In this document: one piece after another, positions 4,677 through 17,585 of the stretch
How positions within the stretch are numbered: the first letter of the stretch is position 1
How the letters are laid out: the number at the start of each line of letters is the position of its first letter
From: an archaeon GW2011_AR15
Lineage (GTDB): Archaea > Nanobdellota > Nanobdellia > Woesearchaeales > GW2011-AR15
DNA length: 24,000 bases
Assembly: GCA_000830295.1 (NCBI GenBank)
Contig: CP010425.1
Location: 753,424 to 777,423, forward strand
Reading direction: 5' to 3'
Notes under the pieces: model-generated
Told to the model about the DNA's origin: nothing
What the model saw: the letters and a program-made list of their open reading frames with translations, nothing else
Database searches by the model: none
Made by a program: the position numbers and the translations under genes

Positions 4677-5690
4677 ATGGATATAGCCTTTTTTGAACTA
4701 GAGAACTGGCAGAAACAGGAAATAAAGCAGAAGCTGAAAAACCACAGGCTGGCTTTTTTTGACAGCCCTCTCAAAGAAGAGCATATCAGTAAGATAAAAG
4801 ATACGCAGGTTCTCGGGATTTTCATATACTCAAAGATTACAGCAGATATAATAGACCGGCTGCCGAAGCTCAGGCTTATTGCCACAATGTCTACTGGCTT
4901 TGACCATATTGATATTGAATACTGCAAAAGGAAAAACATAGCAGTATGCAATGTGCCGACTTACGGGGAGAATACAGTTGCAGAGCATACTTTTGCGCTT
5001 ATACTTGCACTGTCAAGGAAATTATACCCTTCAGTTAAGAGGACTAGGGAGAACCATCTCTTTGAGACTGATATCTCACTCAGGGGGTTTGACCTCAAGG
5101 GAAGGACAATAGGCCTTATAGGCTGCGGCAATATAGGAAAACATGTTGCCAGGATGGCAGCAGGGTTTGAGATGGACATACTTGTCTATGATATCTATAA
5201 GGATGAGAAACTTGCCAGAAAAATAGGTTTCAGATATGCAGAGTTTGATGACCTTCTCACTGAATCTGACGTAATAAGCCTCCATGTGCCTTATAACAGC
5301 AAGACGCACCATCTTATTAATGAGGAGACAATAGGCAGGATGAAAAAGGGGGCCCATATAATCAACACTTCAAGAGGCGCAGTGATTGACACAAAGGCCC
5401 TTGTGAGAGGTCTGGAGTCAGGAAAAATTGCAGGGGTAGGAATAGATGTGCTTGAGGGAGAGGGGGAAATAAAGGAAGAGATGGCTGTCCTCAAGGATGA
5501 ATTCAAATCCAGTTCAGACCTCCAGACAGTACTTGCCAATCATGTGCTCATGAAAATGGATAATGTCTTAATCACGCCTCACAACGCATTCAATTCAGCC
5601 GAGGCCCTGCAGAGGATACTGAATACGACAATAGAGAATATCTTTTCTTTTTCATCAGGAAAAAAAGAGAACCTTGTCTGGCAGCATTAA
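4677..5690 (+). CDS. D-isomer-specific 2-hydroxyacid dehydrogenase (D-lactate dehydrogenase-like), NAD-binding
   Basis: 337 aa. Rossmann motif GLIGCGNIGKHVARMA. Catalytic-triad context: NTSRG, DVLEGE, ITPHNAF. Confidence 0.85.
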   Translation: MDIAFFELENWQKQEIKQKLKNHRLAFFDSPLKEEHISKIKDTQVLGIFIYSKITADIIDRLPKLRLIATMSTGFDHIDIEYCKRKNIAVCNVPTYGENTVAEHTFALILALSRKLYPSVKRTRENHLFETDISLRGFDLKGRTIGLIGCGNIGKHVARMAAGFEMDILVYDIYKDEKLARKIGFRYAEFDDLLTESDVISLHVPYNSKTHHLINEETIGRMKKGAHIINTSRGAVIDTKALVRGLESGKIAGVGIDVLEGEGEIKEEMAVLKDEFKSSSDLQTVLANHVLMKMDNVLITPHNAFNSAEALQRILNTTIENIFSFSSGKKENLVWQH

Positions 5691-9537: not shown

Positions 9538-9628
9538 TGGGCCCGAGCGGATTCTCACCAATCCTTACCAGCATTGATGGGGCTAGTGTGTTTCCTCGCT
9601 TTGCTCGTCAAGCACACGTTATATAAAA
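9538..9628 (-). repeat. Type A tRNA-trailer insert ending in a 16-nt duplicate of the tRNA-Ile 3' end
   Basis: 9538..9553 is identical to 9629..9644 (tgggcccgagcggatt). The interior folds into two hairpins and is homologous to 16099..16180. Confidence 0.75.
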
Positions 9629-9752
9629 TGGGCCCGAGCGGATTTGAACCGCCGACCACTCGATTGCTGACTGATATGCTATCAGTCGAGCGCTCCATTA
9701 TCCCATCGCCCAGGTACAACCCAGGCGAGTGACCAGACTAAGCCACGGGCCC
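9629..9752 (-). tRNA. tRNA-Ile (anticodon GAU) with two introns (D-loop about 35 nt; canonical 37/38 about 15 nt)
   Basis: Minus strand: GGGCCCG TG GCTT[AGTCTGG..insert..]GAGC G CTCGA CTGATA[GCATATCAGTCAGCA]A TCGAG TGGTC GGCGG TTCAAAT CCGCT CGGGCCC A. All stems pair. No encoded CCA. Confidence 0.8.
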
Positions 9753-11800: not shown

Positions 11801-11862
11801 GCAGTGTCCAAAGGAAATGTTATATTTAAATCTTCATAGTTTCCAAAATAATGTTTAGAAAA

Positions 11863-11976
11863 TAAGCCTCCGAAGATATCCTCACTTGCGTTCGGAAACC
11901 TTTCGGAGTCTTTAAATTAAGCCTCCGAAGGGTTAAGTCACTTTCGTTCCTGAACCCACGTAGCCTTAATAAATTA
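11863..11976 (-). repeat. Two tandem type B trailer units, each ending in a copy of the tRNA-Thr 3' end
   Basis: 11914..11932 is identical to 11971..11989 (19 nt). 11863..11875 is a third 13-nt copy. Each unit contains a GA-tandem/GNRA hairpin (11936..11951 and 11880..11895). Confidence 0.75.
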
Positions 11977-12077
11977 AGCCTCCGAAGGGAATTGAACCCT
12001 CGACCTGCGGATTGCTCCCAACCTTTTCTTAAAAGGCTGTTACAAGTCCGCCGCAATAGCCGCTATGCTACGGAGGC
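11977..12077 (-). tRNA. tRNA-Thr (anticodon UGU) with a 28-nt canonical intron
   Basis: Minus strand: GCCTCCG TA GCAT AGCGGCTA TTGC G GCGGA CTTGTA[28 nt]A TCCGC AGGTC GAGGG TTCAATT CCCTT CGGAGGC T. The intron contains the hairpin CCTTTT-AAG-AAAAGG. Confidence 0.85.
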
Positions 12078-12132
12078 ATTTTTGCCAAAGTAGCTTTCGA
12101 AAATCCTTGATTTTCGATGTGCTACGGAGGCA
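12078..12132 (-). repeat. Upstream insert beginning with a 13-nt duplicate of the tRNA-Thr 5' end
   Basis: 12120..12132 is identical to 12066..12078 (tgctacggaggca on +). Between the copies is a long hairpin: GTAGC-ACA-TCGAAAATC-AAG-GATTTTCGA-AA-GCTAC. Confidence 0.7.
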
Positions 12133-12155
12133 CGTATATTCAGGATTAAAAAGCC

Positions 12156-12162
12156 ATTTAAA
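12156..12162 (-). promoter_or_regulatory. TATA-like TTTAAAT 24 nt upstream of the distal (duplicate) tRNA-Thr 5' end
   Basis: Minus strand: TTATTTAAAT-GGCTTTTTAATCCTGAATATACGT-GCCTCCGTAGCA. No comparable box lies upstream of the tRNA proper at 12077. Confidence 0.5.
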
Positions 12163-13824: not shown

Positions 13825-14424
13825 ATGGCTGAAGCAATTAACCCAGAAACAAAAACAAATCTGCATCTAAATGTTAAAGATCCTGTTTCAGAAGGGAAAG
13901 TAACGCTTACCAAAAATGAGCAAAAAGTGCTAAAGCAGATAATTATTAAGGAAAAGCTATCAGACACTACTATAGCAGGCAGTATGAAGCTTTCCCAGCA
14001 GGCAGTTAACCAGATTAGGTCAAAGCTGGAAAACTTAGGCGTGATTAAAGGGTATTCTCCGATAATAGATTTTGAAAAAATAGGCATTACTGTTATCATT
14101 TTAATAGGTATCAGGCTTACACATAAAGTTTGGGAGAATAAGAAAGAATGGGAAATTGAACAAAACCTAAAGAAAATCCCTTTTATCTTTGAAGCTTATA
14201 GGATAGCCGGCCAGGATATCTCCCATGTACTATGCATGGGATTTAAAGATGACATTCAAAAAGATAAATTCATAAAAAAACTTCAGACTATATATGAAGA
14301 TCAGCTGAACCTTAAGTGGAGTTATTCTTTTTCTGCTAAAGATATAATACTACAGGATCAACTTGGGCTGTTGTATCAAATTATTGATAAAAAAGATTTT
14401 GAATTCGAAAAATTATTCTTGTAG
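13825..14424 (+). CDS. Lrp/AsnC-like transcriptional regulator with N-terminal extension
   Basis: 199 aa. HTH: LTKNEQKVLKQIIIKEKLSDTTIAGSMKLSQQAVNQIRSKLENLGVIKGYSPIIDFEKIG, followed by a RAM-like domain. GGAG 8 nt upstream of the ATG. Confidence 0.7.
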   Translation: MAEAINPETKTNLHLNVKDPVSEGKVTLTKNEQKVLKQIIIKEKLSDTTIAGSMKLSQQAVNQIRSKLENLGVIKGYSPIIDFEKIGITVIILIGIRLTHKVWENKKEWEIEQNLKKIPFIFEAYRIAGQDISHVLCMGFKDDIQKDKFIKKLQTIYEDQLNLKWSYSFSAKDIILQDQLGLLYQIIDKKDFEFEKLFL

Positions 14425-14510
14425 GTTCAATGTGTTTTAGTTCACAATTTTTAATGCTGTAAATCTTGTAGACTACTAGCGATTATTTATGAATTCATGG
14501 CTTCTTATAA

Positions 14511-14729
14511 ATGAATATGGTGAATCATAAAAACCCAATAACGACCTGTTGGTGTTGCAAAAAGAGCTTTGACGGCAACTTTGAGATAAAAAATCTACAA
14601 ATAGTTTGTCCTTATTGTAAAAAACCACAATCGTCTGTCTTCGAAAAAAAATCTCAGGCTGAAATTATAAGAAAATCTAAAGTCACACTAAAAAAGTTTA
14701 AAACAGCATTCAAAAATTCACAGCCATAA
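14511..14729 (+). CDS. Small zinc-ribbon protein (hypothetical)
   Basis: 72 aa. CWCC...CPYC cysteine pairs 24 residues apart. Basic C-terminus. No other support. Confidence 0.4.
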   Translation: MNMVNHKNPITTCWCCKKSFDGNFEIKNLQIVCPYCKKPQSSVFEKKSQAEIIRKSKVTLKKFKTAFKNSQP

Positions 14730-14748
14730 AAAAAGCGGGGCAGAGAAA

Positions 14749-14898
14749 ATGTTATATGTTGATAATAAAGGGAAATTCTTTTCAGAAGAAGAAACTGCAG
14801 CACTCTCATCCTGGGAGATTGAGCTGAGGGGAATCCATGCATATGAAGAGAATCTGGAAAAACGACTCTTCAATCACATGGATGATATGATTATCTAA
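14749..14898 (+). CDS. Possible small protein (49 aa), hypothetical
   Basis: Below the ORF-track cutoff. ATG at 14749 follows the zinc-ribbon gene by 19 nt. Reads MLYVDNKGKFFSEEETAALSSWEIELRGIHAYEENLEKRLFNHMDDMII. Weak support only. Confidence 0.25.
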   Translation: MLYVDNKGKFFSEEETAALSSWEIELRGIHAYEENLEKRLFNHMDDMII

Positions 14899-15080
14899 TT
14901 GGCAGTTTCAGAAATTAGAGATTGTGTCAGTCCAATATAAATATTAAAAATTTTTCTTAATAGTGTGTATCTGCGTATACTACAAGGTTTCTTTGCAAGA
15001 GTATGTTAGTTCACTAGAACCTCTTTATATAGCTATAATCATTAATCTAGTATACAATAAAGAACCATGAGGTGGTTTTA

Positions 15081-15725
15081 ATGGGAAAAAAATATGAATA
15101 CCATAAACAAAATGACTATCCTGGAGAAAGGGTAGCAGAGCAAAAAAGAATCTCTGATAGAGAAGATATTACAAATAAGCGATCTAATACAAAGTCACTT
15201 ATTATTGTAGGGCTATTAGTAATTCTAATTGCTGGAGTTACTTGGGGTTATATGGCTTCGTCACAAGAATCTGATGAGCTAAACTCAAATGATGAGGTGC
15301 TTTTTACAGCAGACACCATGAGGCCAGGCATAGTTAAAGTTTCACCAGCAAACAACGAGTTGAATGTCGAAACGCAAGACGCAGTGACAGTACGATTCAG
15401 CGAACAGATGGATGCGAGTACTATCAATAAATATACTTTCACCGTAGTGCAGAGGACAACTCCAGAAAATGGGCCAACTTCGCCAGATTATCGATCAAGG
15501 CAAATTGAGGGTATAGTTACGTATAATGACTTAGGTCTTATCGCAACCTTTACACCAAAAGAGAAGTTTACACCAAACCAAGAATACGGGAACGTGTTTA
15601 CTGTATCGATAACAACAGCAGTAAAGGATCTTGCAGGCAATTCGCTTTCGCAGGATTATGTGTGGAGCTTTACTACAGGTAGCAACCCGTTTAATACCGG
15701 CACTACAACTTCACAAACAGCTTAA
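15081..15725 (+). CDS. Membrane-anchored protein with bacterial Ig-like (SbsA/Big_5-type) domain
   Basis: TM helice LIIVGLLVILIAGVTWGY, then VSPANNELNVETQDAVTVRFSEQMDASTINKYTFTV...DLAGNSLSQDYVWSFTTG, typical of Big_5 domains. I prefer the ATG at 15081 (GAGGTG 9 nt upstream) over the track's GTG at 15072. Confidence 0.7.
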   Translation: MGKKYEYHKQNDYPGERVAEQKRISDREDITNKRSNTKSLIIVGLLVILIAGVTWGYMASSQESDELNSNDEVLFTADTMRPGIVKVSPANNELNVETQDAVTVRFSEQMDASTINKYTFTVVQRTTPENGPTSPDYRSRQIEGIVTYNDLGLIATFTPKEKFTPNQEYGNVFTVSITTAVKDLAGNSLSQDYVWSFTTGSNPFNTGTTTSQTA

Positions 15726-15932
15726 TTTTTTTTTATTTTTTTAATCAAACCTAAAAATCATGAGTACACTGTTTTCTGAAATATTTCATATTGTTTCACC
15801 GATATTAAATATATCTAAAATGCTACCCTGCATTTACGACTATCGGGGTGAGGAAAATGAGAAGAATAATCCTGCATTGCAGGCAATTTGGGACATTTTC
15901 TTTGAAATAATCCCTTCTATATCAATAACATC

Positions 15933-15939
15933 TATAAAT
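15933..15939 (+). promoter_or_regulatory. TATA-like TATAAAT; 24 nt later begins a degenerate copy of the tRNA-Pro 5' part
   Basis: TATAAAT plus 24 nt leads to G15964 of GGGACATTGGTTAAACTTGGT. This matches GGGGTTGTGGTCTAGCTTGGT (tRNA-Pro 1-21) at 14 of 21 positions. No TATA-like box lies directly upstream of tRNA-Pro. Confidence 0.4.
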
Positions 15940-16024
15940 TAAATGCTTTTCCGATTGTCTAAAGGGACATTGGTTAAACTTGGTTACGTTCACGGAAACC
16001 AAGTTTCCGAGAACCCGAAAAAGC

Positions 16025-16098
16025 GGGGTTGTGGTCTAGCTTGGTATGATTCGCGGTTCGGGACCGCGAGGTCGGGGGTTCGAATCCTCCCAACCCCA
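16025..16098 (+). tRNA. tRNA-Pro (anticodon CGG), no intron
   Basis: GGGGTTG TG GTCT AGCTTGGTA TGAT T CGCGG TTCGGGA CCGCG AGGTC GGGGG TTCGAAT CCTCC CAACCCC A. Confidence 0.85.
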
Positions 16099-16180
16099 CT
16101 TTCAGGTACGCTTGAGCAAAGCGAAACGTACCTTCTCCGTCAATGCTGAAAAGGATTGGTGCGTAATCCTCCCAACCCCA
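16099..16180 (+). repeat. Type A tRNA-trailer insert ending in a 16-nt duplicate of the tRNA-Pro 3' end
   Basis: 16165..16180 is identical to 16083..16098 (aatcctcccaacccca). Homologous in block order to the Ile insert. Hairpins: GGTACG...CGTACC and GGATT-GGTGCGT-AATCC. Confidence 0.75.
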
Positions 16181-16186: not shown

Positions 16187-16241
16187 CGAGGTATTCAAGG
16201 TTCGGGACCTTGAGGTCTGGGTTCGAATCCCAGGAACCCCA
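16187..16241 (+). pseudogene. 5'-truncated tRNA-Pro(CGG)-like fragment: part of D-loop, anticodon arm, T-arm, 3' acceptor strand
   Basis: CGAGGTATT CAAGG TTCGGGA CCTTG AGGTC CTGGG-type T-arm (TGGGTTCGAATCCCAG) GAACCCC A. Stems are perfect but differ from the neighbouring tRNA-Pro. No 5' acceptor strand (GGGGTTC) or D-stem 5' strand is present upstream. Confidence 0.6.
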
Positions 16242-16245
16242 CATC

Positions 16246-16318
16246 GGGCTCGTAGCTCATCGGCCAGAGCGTTCCCCTCGCACGGGAAAGGCAGCGAGTT
16301 CAATTCTCGCCGGGTCCA
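16246..16318 (+). tRNA. tRNA-Ala (anticodon CGC), no intron
   Basis: GGGCTCG TA GCTC ATCGGCCA GAGC G TTCCC CTCGCAC GGGAA AGGCA GCGAG TTCAATT CTCGC CGGGTCC A. The G3:U70 alanine identity pair is present. 73 nt. Confidence 0.9.
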
Positions 16319-16364: not shown

Positions 16365-16473
16365 AGCGAGGGGGGGGACTCGAACCCCCGATGATCGGGA
16401 TCTACATGTCATAGCGTTAGCTCATCATCCCGGATGTTGCAGCCGATTGCCTTAGCCGCTTGGCGACCCCCGC
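16365..16473 (-). tRNA. tRNA-Cys (anticodon GCA) with a 37-nt intron at 37/38
   Basis: Minus strand: GCGGGGG TC GCCAAGCGGCTAAGGC A ATCGG CTGCAA[37 nt] CCGAT CATC GGGGG TTCGAGT CCCCC CCCTCGC T. The intron carries ATGATGA inside a GGGAT/ATCCC stem. Confidence 0.8.
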
Positions 16474-17451: not shown

Positions 17452-17511
17452 TGAGCCTGCGAGGAGAACTCACTTGCGTTCGTGCTCCTCTGGTCTCATT
17501 CGCTTCGCTTA
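17451..17511 (-). repeat. Type B tRNA-trailer insert ending in a 15-nt duplicate of the tRNA-Arg 3' end
   Basis: 17451..17465 is identical to 17511..17525 (atgagcctgcgagga). Hairpin GAGGAG-[CACGAACGCAAGTGAGTT]-CTCCTC; its 3' strand is part of the duplicated segment. Confidence 0.75.
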
Positions 17512-17585
17512 TGAGCCTGCGAGGATTTGAACCCCGGTATTCAGCTTAGAAGGCTGATGTCCTATCCAGGCTGGACGACAGGCTC
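17512..17585 (-). tRNA. tRNA-Arg (anticodon UCU), no intron
   Basis: Minus strand: GAGCCTG TC GTCC AGCCTGGATA GGAC A TCAGC CTTCTAA GCTGA ATAC CGGGG TTCAAAT CCTCG CAGGCTC A. 74 nt. Confidence 0.9.

Follow-up and report, generated by a model that had tools for sequence, protein, structure and literature searches.

How does a tRNA gene come to be wrapped in spare copies of its own two ends, and which of the copies gives rise to the tRNA? The question is raised by the tRNA-Thr(UGU) gene of GW2011_AR15, a DPANN archaeon of the Woesearchaeota type, which lies on the minus strand of the 24,000-nucleotide (nt) stretch of contig CP010425.1 (positions 753,424 to 777,423) that we analysed and refer to as the window. 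An earlier note on this DNA had described the gene as nested between outer copies of its ends, and had left undecided whether a leader or an intron is removed from its transcript. The reading that we favour, to which we give about an even chance of being right, is that hairpin cassettes related to tRNA introns were inserted together with a duplication of the gene ends, that the inner gene makes the tRNA, and that the added satellites act as leader and trailer pieces that sequester themselves.

One promoter and one terminator frame about 275 nt of the minus strand, from 12131 to about 11858, and this frame holds a complete tRNA-Thr(UGU) and three satellite units of about 55 nt each, one upstream and two downstream. 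The contiguous gene (11977-12077, minus) consists of exon 1 (12041-12077), a 28-nt intron at position 37/38 (12013-12040) and exon 2 (11977-12012); with 54.9 bits against Rfam family RF00005 (threshold 29), it is the intact intron-containing tRNA-Thr that the earlier note had placed here, and its presence rules out a split or permuted tRNA gene. It is missed by ARAGORN, which reports only the three intron-less genes among the seven tRNAs that Rfam finds in the window, the other four having introns. Each satellite carries an exact copy of a terminal strand of tRNA-Thr itself (nt -1 to 12 upstream; nt 61/63 to 73 plus trailer downstream), paired to an imperfect complement and capped by a small hairpin. 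Rfam finds no tRNA match in the satellites even at E <= 10, and no other family there.

Upstream, the exact outer copy TGCCTCCGTAGCA (tRNA positions -1 to 12; 12120-12132, minus), with the probable transcript start at G 12131, is followed by a 41-nt leader spacer (12079-12119, minus) that contains a hairpin core (12097-12117, TCGAAAATCAAGGATTTTCGA), a GCTAC..GGC strand that complements the outer copy, and an A-rich linker, AAAAA(T), that is free. As had been claimed, TGCCTCCGTAGCA is repeated 54 nt upstream of the gene's own copy: it occurs at exactly two sites in the window, 12120-12132 and 12066-12078, against a chance expectation of 0.40 matches when up to two mismatches are allowed. Downstream, 3' copy A (11970-11989, minus) comprises tRNA nt 61-73 and 7 nt of trailer (CCCTTCGGAGGCTTAATTTA). 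It is followed by the 57-nt unit B (11920-11976, minus), a linker plus a minihelix-like hairpin (GGCTACG..GGGTT-c-AG-GA-AC-GAAA-GT-GA-CT-t-AACCC..CGGAGGCT) with an exact 20-nt copy at 11913-11932, so that copies A and B have the 20 nt of CCCTTCGGAGGCTTAATTTA in common, and then by the 56-nt unit C (11864-11919, minus), again a linker plus hairpin (GACTCCGAA-AGGT-t-TCC-GA-AC-GCAA-GT-GA-GGA-t-ATCTT-CGGAGGCT), with an exact 13-nt copy at 11863-11875. CTTCGGAGGCTTA occurs at exactly three sites in the window (11975-11987, 11918-11930 and 11863-11875). The two further 3'-end copies are thus where the earlier note had put them, but they are not bare repeats: each is part of a minihelix-like unit. 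The first T-run after tRNA-Thr, TATTTTCT (11857-11864, minus), comes only after these units and matches the trailer of simple orthologs.

Such repeats can hardly be a product of chance or of faulty assembly. Their shortness is the only point in favour of that explanation; the exact 13-mers occur at these sites alone in the 24 kb, the architecture is present in many genomes, and the tRNA-Thr region is base-for-base the same in two independent assemblies, L001 and L002 (L-numbers denote homologous or related loci in other assemblies; L007 is the same as L018, and L011 is OY970338.1). The 223-amino-acid protein encoded just upstream of tRNA-Thr has an identical sequence on at least 24 contigs, including one from a Rifle groundwater assembly (ENA ERZ909588, PRJNA268031), which together with the identical assemblies rules out an assembly artefact. 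Homologues of this protein are found in metagenome-assembled genomes labelled Woesearchaeota.

The promoter belongs to the outer copy. The TTTAAAT box (12156-12162, minus) is the sole promoter-like box of the unit and lies 24 nt before the outer G1; at the tRNA-Ile, -Phe and -Arg genes of the window a box of like kind ends 24-25 nt before position 1, and inspection by eye found nothing TATA-like 20-35 nt before the inner G1. The observations of the earlier note on the box, its spacing and its absence from the proximal 5' end therefore all hold, and its attribution of the promoter to the outer copy is borne out by the relatives. By script, 11 of 16 tRNA-Thr loci were found to have a TTTAAAT-type box that precedes the outermost G1 by 23-25 nt, both simple (L004, L007, L008, L009, L010, L026, L028 and L030) and nested (the window, L003 and L006). 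Simple orthologs (L009, L007, L004) match, in both their upstream and their downstream flanks, the sequence outside the window's copies: upstream, they are homologous to what stands before the outer copy, and downstream the trailer of L009 (TGTTATTTTCT) matches the sequence after unit C. In L023 the box stands 23 nt (by eye) before the outermost copy, which is degenerate. It is 36-42 nt from the outer copy in L013 and L029, so that an activity that removes leaders is needed there in any case. Simple genes of the lineage have a pyrimidine at -1, a G at +1 and a spacing of 23-25 nt from box to +1; some boxes in the lineage are 33-45 nt away, and several genes have structured leaders of 54-113 nt.

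The satellites are predicted to be closed hairpins. The fold of the 54-nt Thr leader is a single long, irregular hairpin (-20.7 kcal/mol; z-score -6.4; 0 of 200 shuffles as stable), in agreement with the long imperfect hairpin that had been noted between the 5' copies, and the fold z-scores of unit B, unit C and the leader of tRNA-Pro are -2.0, -3.6 and -3.5, respectively. The elements of the Thr leader are P1 (GCC/GGC), P2 (GUAGC/GCUAC), a variable hairpin P3 and then the free A-rich linker. This design recurs in L003, L023, L013, L029 and the tRNA-Pro leader, with a P3 that differs in sequence from case to case (UCGAAAAUC/GAUUUUCGA, AAAAUCAAA/UUUGAUUUU, GCGC/GCGC, AAACUUGGUU/AACCAAGUUU), and in the folded nested leaders (window Thr and Pro, L003, L023, L013) 6-8 unpaired, A-rich nt form a linker ahead of the inner G1. 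The 3' units resemble acceptor/T-stem minihelices in which the exact tRNA-end copy is the 3' strand; their tip is GA-AC-GNRA-GU-GA and the adjoining stem varies in a compensatory fashion (AG/CU, UCC/GGA, AC/GU, UAU/GUA, GUUUC/GAAAC). The conservation of structure described here rests on single-sequence folds; RNAalifold gave no consensus for a MAFFT alignment of six leaders, which the variable hairpin had scrambled. We rejected a kink-turn or C/D-box reading of the tip, in which no 3-nt bulge was seen by eye. The pieces are not inert remains, each being a closed hairpin whose stems show compensatory changes from genome to genome.

The nested layout is not peculiar to tRNA-Thr: it recurs with exact copies of 14-16 nt at tRNA-Ile, -Pro and -Arg of the same window, in decayed form at tRNA-Phe, and throughout the lineage. 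In the tRNA-Ile trailer (9538-9644, minus) the 16-nt 3' end AATCCGCTCGGGCCCA stands at 9629-9644 and again at 9538-9553, with a two-hairpin spacer of 75 nt between. The tRNA-Pro trailer (16083-16180, plus) has AATCCTCCCAACCCCA at 16083-16098 and 16165-16180, separated by 66 nt that are homologous to the tRNA-Ile trailer spacer, and TTTTTT after the distal copy. This gene also has a structured 61-nt leader (15964-16024, plus), made of a decayed copy of tRNA-Pro nt 1-32, a hairpin and a GAAAAAGC linker, and a TATAAAT at 15933-15939 that lies 24 nt before that leader. In the tRNA-Arg trailer (17452-17525, minus), 14-nt copies of TCCTCGCAGGCTCA at 17512-17525 and 17452-17465 enclose a 46-nt spacer, and a run of eight T follows the distal copy; tRNA-Phe has a decayed 3' copy about 80 nt downstream. 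At Pro, Arg and Thr, the T-run comes after the distal copy and not after the gene.

Nested 5' copies are found at tRNA-Thr in L003 (nt 1-12, period 58), L006 (-2 to 13, period 91) and L013 (-7 to 12, period 113). The L023 leader has two tandem units (57 nt x 2.2 at 92% in the output of the program TRF), and its outermost copy has two changes, both of which break acceptor pairs, yet this is the copy next to the box; L029 has tandem 113-nt units with nested 5' copies. TRF, at a score of at least 30, reported no tandem repeat in the window. The tRNA-Ile gene of L007 (about 4945-5070) also has the 5' layout, with an outer AAAACAAACGGGCCCG and an inner AAAACAAGCGGGCCCG about 83 nt apart, a TTTTTAAT box about 22 nt before the outer copy, and a spacer made of modules of Thr leaders and introns. 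At the 3' end, nesting is seen for tRNA-Thr in L008, L020 and L023 (the last with three ends, like the window) and for tRNA-Ile in L004 (16 nt). Throughout, the order is copy-spacer-copy, with copies of 12-19 nt, many of them 14-16 nt, at or close to the mature tRNA end, and with 0 to 3 units per locus. Simple tRNA-Thr orthologs (L004, L007, L009, L016, L030) are mixed among the nested ones, and L020 and L026 form a clean presence/absence pair whose difference of 95 nt is an 82-nt spacer plus a 13-nt copy. Units B and C of the window are homologous but diverged, unit C can be aligned among the window, L023, L010 and L008 (alignment A3), and in L010 its tRNA-end copy has decayed. The layout is a lineage-wide pattern that is patchy and shows tandem amplification and decay. 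Patchiness, presence/absence pairs, tandem arrays and a decay series together point to insertion or duplication events that turn over.

The spacers fall into families that cross from one tRNA to another. The hairpin tip CGAACGCAAGTGAG is common to Thr unit C and the Arg trailers, and unit B has the variant GAACGAAAGTGAC; CAATGCTGnnAAGGATTGGTG and GAGCAAAGCGA are present in both the Ile and the Pro trailers, CCTCAAGGCTTT..TTGrTGAkAATC in the Ile trailer of L004 and the Phe trailer of the window, and GGTTACGCTnnGGTTGAC in the Thr leader of L006 and the Ile leader of L007. Introns share these modules. GTGGGTTTC..AAGCCCAC is the nested part of the Thr 37/38 intron in L003 and L004 and recurs in the L007 Ile leader; the hairpin core CATCGAAAATCAAGGATTTTCGAAAGC of the window's Thr leader matches TACGAAAATCAAAGATTTTTCAAGCA in the tRNA-Thr 37/38 intron of L023, with CGAAAATCAAgGATTTTcG as the common module; and TGGTGAGAAT is common to the Phe intron and the Ile trailer. 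Judged by these sequences, the spacers are related to the tRNA introns of the lineage and move from locus to locus. It is always the resident gene whose end is copied on either side of a spacer, also where a spacer family crosses tRNAs, which argues that the duplicated end is made from the target and not carried by an element.

Two other sources for the spacers were considered and set aside. Local alignments of spacers to the body of the cognate tRNA were no better than shuffles (z <= 2), the tRNA-Pro leader excepted (z 2.6), and a model of collapsed tandem gene copies was dropped because of this and because it also leaves the spacer families common to different tRNAs unexplained. The A-rich tail that is a hallmark of retroposition is found only at the 5' spacers, where it is better read as a linker for RNase P. 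We also observed that the tRNA-Thr 37/38 intron of about 80 nt in L003 (4805-4885) and L004 (1497-1580) has the look of one intron inside another: the GTGGGTTTC..AAGCCCAC hairpin is flanked by an internal repeat, TTAAGAAAAG, with a period of 52.

Are the spare ends trimmed off, or are they the true exons of a gene whose inner copies are spliced out? Splicing calls for a motif of the bulge-helix-bulge (BHB) type, and we scored all pairs of splice sites from which the tRNA would be restored, for either arrangement of the BHB. The criterion was two 3-nt bulges around a 4-bp central helix (H), with flanking helices and with sites that give the mature tRNA, and the cut-off was at least 3 pairs in H, at least 2 in the outer helix and at least 2 in the inner helix. 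The same script recovers the canonical Thr 37/38 intron (H 3/4, outer 5, inner 7). At the 5' junction, from outer to inner copy, no BHB was found among the repeat-consistent site pairs of the window and L006, and one weak pair was found in each of L003 and L023 (H 4/4 if G-U pairs count, outer 2, inner 2). As for the 3' junctions of Thr, the script flags only sites inside the self-complementary stretch of CGGAGGCTTA and trailer (H 3-4, outer 3, inner 3), and no BHB lies at the start boundary of the repeats, so that the units lack the mark of BHB introns. Were the splice sites to lie in a direct repeat, their central helix would have to be self-complementary. Scans of whole precursors for BHBs are noisy, and the geometry is meaningful only for the canonical intron and the tRNA-Ile trailer. 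The impression in the earlier note that no convincing BHB could be drawn at the Thr junctions is borne out by this scoring; in combination with the duplicated exon end, it makes splicing there unnecessary and probably absent. A separate stretch of the leader (12084-12089), just ahead of the inner G1, could pair with one of the trailer (11854-11862, both minus), just past unit C, through TTTGG/CTAAA. The BHB-like match that can be drawn there together with the acceptor helix (TTTGG-CAA-AAAT.. / ..TTA-TTTT-CTAAA; H 3/4, outer 5, inner 7) is A/U-rich and not clear in L023, and we discarded it as probably due to chance.

On the choice between leader and intron, which the earlier note had left undecided, the evidence now leans to the inner contiguous gene as the functional one, with leader and trailer removed. 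Four independent points speak for it: the box-proximal copy of L023 breaks acceptor pairs, the copies in the tRNA-Pro leader, at the distal end of tRNA-Phe and in unit C of L010 have decayed, and unit C of the window carries ATCTT where the T stem needs CCCTT, which would put an A at position 61 in place of the conserved C61; in L013 and L029 a leader must be removed anyway. In this scheme, transcription would start at the outer copy and end after unit C, and the mature tRNA would come from the inner contiguous gene: RNase P would cut after the single-stranded A-rich linker, which by its conserved place ahead of the inner G1 would suit this enzyme, tRNase Z would cut after U73 of copy A, and the splicing endonuclease would remove the 37/38 intron only. 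The complementary strand in each satellite would sequester the spare tRNA end, in the case of the leader co-transcriptionally, and so keep it out of the competition for the acceptor stem. Such sequestering would explain why every satellite is a closed hairpin, with no further function needed.

As to origin, our favoured account supposes that hairpin cassettes akin to the tRNA introns of the lineage entered the extreme ends of compact tRNA genes, which would have had a promoter about 24 nt before +1 and a T-run right after nt 73. Each surviving insertion would come with a duplicate of the displaced gene end, allowing a contiguous gene to persist, and the original promoter and terminator would stay outside the inserted units. 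Slippage or unequal exchange between copies would then amplify, homogenise or delete units. The proposal of the earlier note, repeated insertions into a once simple gene, is upheld in so far as the flanks of simple orthologs match the sequences outside the units; that the gene was once simple may not hold for the 5' unit, however, because the leader unit is found even in distant relatives.

Several observations weigh against this account. The outer 5' copies equal the resident tRNA in six lineages despite tRNA differences at nt 9 and 12 (GTAGCA, GTGGCT, GTAGCT), and the exactness extends to positions that the leader fold leaves unpaired. Mere relics would be expected to drift, so that exact outer copies require a recent origin, concerted evolution or a function of the copy; concerted evolution via slippage or unequal exchange is plausible because the tandem units of L023 and L029 show such exchange. 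The leader unit and unit C are recognisable where the neighbour protein is only 31-62% identical, an age that suggests that they are selected for and not just tolerated. Neither an enzyme for the insertion nor a donor copy nor a free element turned up: Pfam detected no integrase, transposase or Cas1 among the 26 open reading frames (ORFs) of the window, and scans of IMG/VR with an att-like 20-mer and two spacer modules gave no match, while 10 matches to a 15-base pattern lacked a tRNA context and are attributed to chance. The presence of RNase P and tRNase Z in this genome is an assumption of the trimming model. In minimum free energy (MFE) folds of the whole Thr, Ile, Pro and Arg precursors the 5' acceptor strand pairs with the distal 3' copy, and when there is a single 3' strand to pair with, the outer and the inner 5' copy compete for it with no energetic advantage to either. 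Finally, a strict BHB geometry is possible in the tRNA-Ile trailer, from 59/60 to the distal copy. There the TTCA of the T loop pairs with a TGAG before the distal copy (H 4/4, outer 5, inner 3), although the outer helix arises automatically and the H' strand overlaps a predicted hairpin. In the tRNA-Pro and tRNA-Arg trailers (the latter by eye) the geometry is relaxed, with 4-nt bulges, and the Thr and Arg units have their TGAG strand tied up in the conserved hairpin.

These points bring us to the other explanations, one of which is that the outer 5' copy, the distal 3' copy or both are the true exons, the spacer and inner copy being spliced out as non-canonical introns near 12/13 and about 60/61 by a relaxed endonuclease. 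Nested exons of this kind would explain the exact co-variation of the outer copy with the tRNA and would suit the promoter and terminator that flank the outer copies, the MFE preference for distal 3' copies and the likeness of the spacers to real introns. They could also draw on the tRNA-Ile trailer, where the TTCA/TGAG pairing gives an hBHBh' geometry with the mature tRNA as its product, on the TGAG-type strands seen by eye before the distal copies in Arg, Thr unit C and L008, and on the DPANN endonucleases with an L3 loop, which go with disrupted tRNA genes and relaxed motifs (PMC5829648). Against the idea speak the Thr 5' junction, where neither a strict nor a 3-of-4 BHB exists in the window or L006 and only weak ones do in L003 and L023, and a TGAG strand that is already engaged in the GA-AC-loop-GU-GA hairpin; the outermost L023 copy and the copies of the tRNA-Pro leader, the distal tRNA-Phe unit and unit C of L010 are degenerate, the ATCTT of unit C would spoil the T stem, and the Pro and Arg geometry is no better than relaxed. 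We consider it distinctly unlikely. A function of the satellites themselves, as selected small RNAs or cis elements (tRNA-end minihelices freed by RNase P and tRNase Z, or DNA or RNA sites near the terminator) that would serve, for instance, as decoys, processing signals or regulators, is improbable in our estimation, even though compensatory changes keep the hairpins across genomes, the unit C core GGTTTCCGAA..GGATATC is kept in the window, L023 and L010 even with a decayed end copy, and the leader unit persists in distant relatives with copies that are exact where the fold leaves them unpaired. Many close relatives do without any unit (L004, L007, L009, L016, L030), the number varies from 0 to 3, no Rfam family is found there, and self-sequestration of the spare acceptor strand is enough to account for the hairpins.

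The repeats might instead be scars of integration, either att (attachment-site) duplications left by a tyrosine integrase or target-site duplications left by a Cas1-type casposase, with the T or D arm as guide and the spacers as insert or remnant. Partial direct repeats of a tRNA gene are the classic mark of integration (PMC3293823, PMC9897764), the blocks of identity reach or nearly reach the mature tRNA end in the manner of att direct repeats, and copies of 12-19 nt that cluster around 15, start beside the T- or D-arm palindrome and form tandem arrays recall the casposase (PMC5137440); 3' fragments of foreign type are also found in L011 (tRNA-Thr) and at 16190-16241 of the window (tRNA-Pro). 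The inserts, however, are only 37-95 nt long, non-coding and, by eye, without terminal inverted repeats, and neither the 26 ORFs nor IMG/VR yielded an enzyme or element. A spacer family is found in different tRNAs with each gene's own end, which an element carrying attP would not produce, and the spacers are structured and mutually related, unlike captured DNA. We think such scars an unlikely explanation of the loci. A particular form of it, which we would call a long shot, is that a staggered-cut integrase, casposase-like or an analogue, would read the T- or D-arm palindrome as a 'leader', duplicate about 15 nt of the gene end beside it and insert short hairpin nucleic acids that derive from excised tRNA introns. 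If true, the loci would be natural miniature repeat-spacer arrays between casposon insertion and CRISPR adaptation, and would show concretely how archaeal tRNA genes can acquire ectopic introns, leaders and fragments.

Comparison with known systems sharpens the contrasts. Integrative elements leave tRNA-gene fragments in Thermococcales (PMC9897764), and in Caldiarchaeum a 5' fragment of tRNA-Thr lies 1.8 kb upstream of the gene as a result of the integration of an element (PMC3293823). The likeness extends to an end copy outside an intact gene, identity to or near the tRNA end, the native flank on the far side, the involvement of tRNA-Thr and a link to intron gain. The known cases, in contrast, span 1.8-23 kb, encode recombinases and have repeats of about 44 bp, whereas the insertions seen here are non-coding hairpins of 37-95 nt that lie inside a transcription unit, are often in tandem, affect both gene ends and belong to families common to different tRNAs. 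At tRNA-Pro, the casposase duplicates 15 +/- 2 bp beside the T-psi-C segment, and tandem insertions are known for it (PMC5137440); casposons (PMC5137440, PMC9939771) resemble our loci in a duplication of about this length by the T-psi-C palindrome at the tRNA 3' end and in tandem insertions separated only by the duplicated segment. They differ in that our tiny inserts lack terminal inverted repeats and have neither Cas1 nor PolB in their neighbourhood; the A. boonei duplication overlaps its gene by only 5 bp, whereas the 13-16 nt copies here start at nt 58-63, inside the gene, and copies of the 5' end exist too.

Fujishima and colleagues reportedly described non-canonical introns and the transposition of introns between tRNA genes in Thermoproteales. 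Our lineage is likewise rich in tRNAs with several introns and has related short sequences at different positions and in different tRNA genes, with spacer cores that match 37/38 introns; transposed introns of the known kind, however, lie between unique exons and have a BHB, whereas here an exon end is duplicated and a convincing BHB is lacking at Thr. Nanoarchaeum equitans, which has no RNase P, is said by Randau et al. (2008) to have compact tRNA genes with the promoter at a fixed distance from +1. The constant spacing of 23-25 nt from box to +1 in the simple genes of our lineage resembles this arrangement, but the leaders of 54-113 nt and the boxes at 33-45 nt imply an activity that removes leaders. 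Archaeal non-canonical BHB introns have been reviewed (PMC4090602, PMC5829648). We found no description of the present architecture in the searchable literature on DPANN and Woesearchaeota, which is not proof of its absence.

For the disruption of archaeal tRNA genes by ectopic introns, splitting or fragmentation, the sole concrete model so far has been integrative elements on the scale of kilobases. The presence/absence pairs, tandem amplification and decay series of the present loci point to a recurrent and still active process on a micro-scale, which would put intron-related hairpins into both ends of tRNA genes with function kept by duplication of the end. The loci may therefore be natural intermediates in the origin of introns, leaders and tRNA fragments. 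Precursors are predicted whose folding must be steered by self-sequestering hairpins, and tRNA annotation of DPANN genomes overlooks such transcribed, structured flanks.

Some further features of these genomes came to light. In L011 (4814-4965), tRNA-Thr and its T-run are followed by a 3' fragment of a different tRNA-Thr allele, GTCGAGGGTGCA, about 95 nt and AATCCCTCCGGAGGCT, in which a long T-loop insert divides the T arm. In the window, 16190-16241 (plus) belongs to another, divergent tRNA-Pro(CGG), which is present as its 3' two-thirds (D loop through nt 73) and whose stems are changed in a compensatory fashion relative to the full gene at 16025-16098; the fragment sits between the tRNA-Pro terminator and tRNA-Ala (16246-16318), which has no TATA-like box of its own. 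Both fragments indicate that recombination with incoming tRNA sequences happens in these genomes. The stretch from 14001 to 16000, beside the tRNA-Pro/Ala cluster, has a G+C content of 0.32-0.36 against about 0.42 elsewhere and encodes a helix-turn-helix protein and a Big_5-domain protein; this DNA may have been acquired.

The relatives gathered via topoisomerase VI subunit A do not conserve synteny with tRNA-Arg. Directly downstream of that subunit, L044 (5214-6020) and L046 (5362-6458) have ORFs with faint LAGLIDADG matches, and the window has tRNA-Arg at the matching place. The tRNA-Ile gene of the window (9629-9752, minus) has two introns, one of 38 nt in the D loop, which is kept in L003, L007 and L010, and one of 16 nt at 37/38. 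A tRNA with anticodon GCA (Cys, by our own reading) lies at 16365-16473 (minus), and its 37/38 intron contains a C-box-like motif, GATGATGA, that is conserved in two relatives (L044 8173-8286 and L045 7759-7875); the intron may thus contain a C/D-box-like guide RNA.

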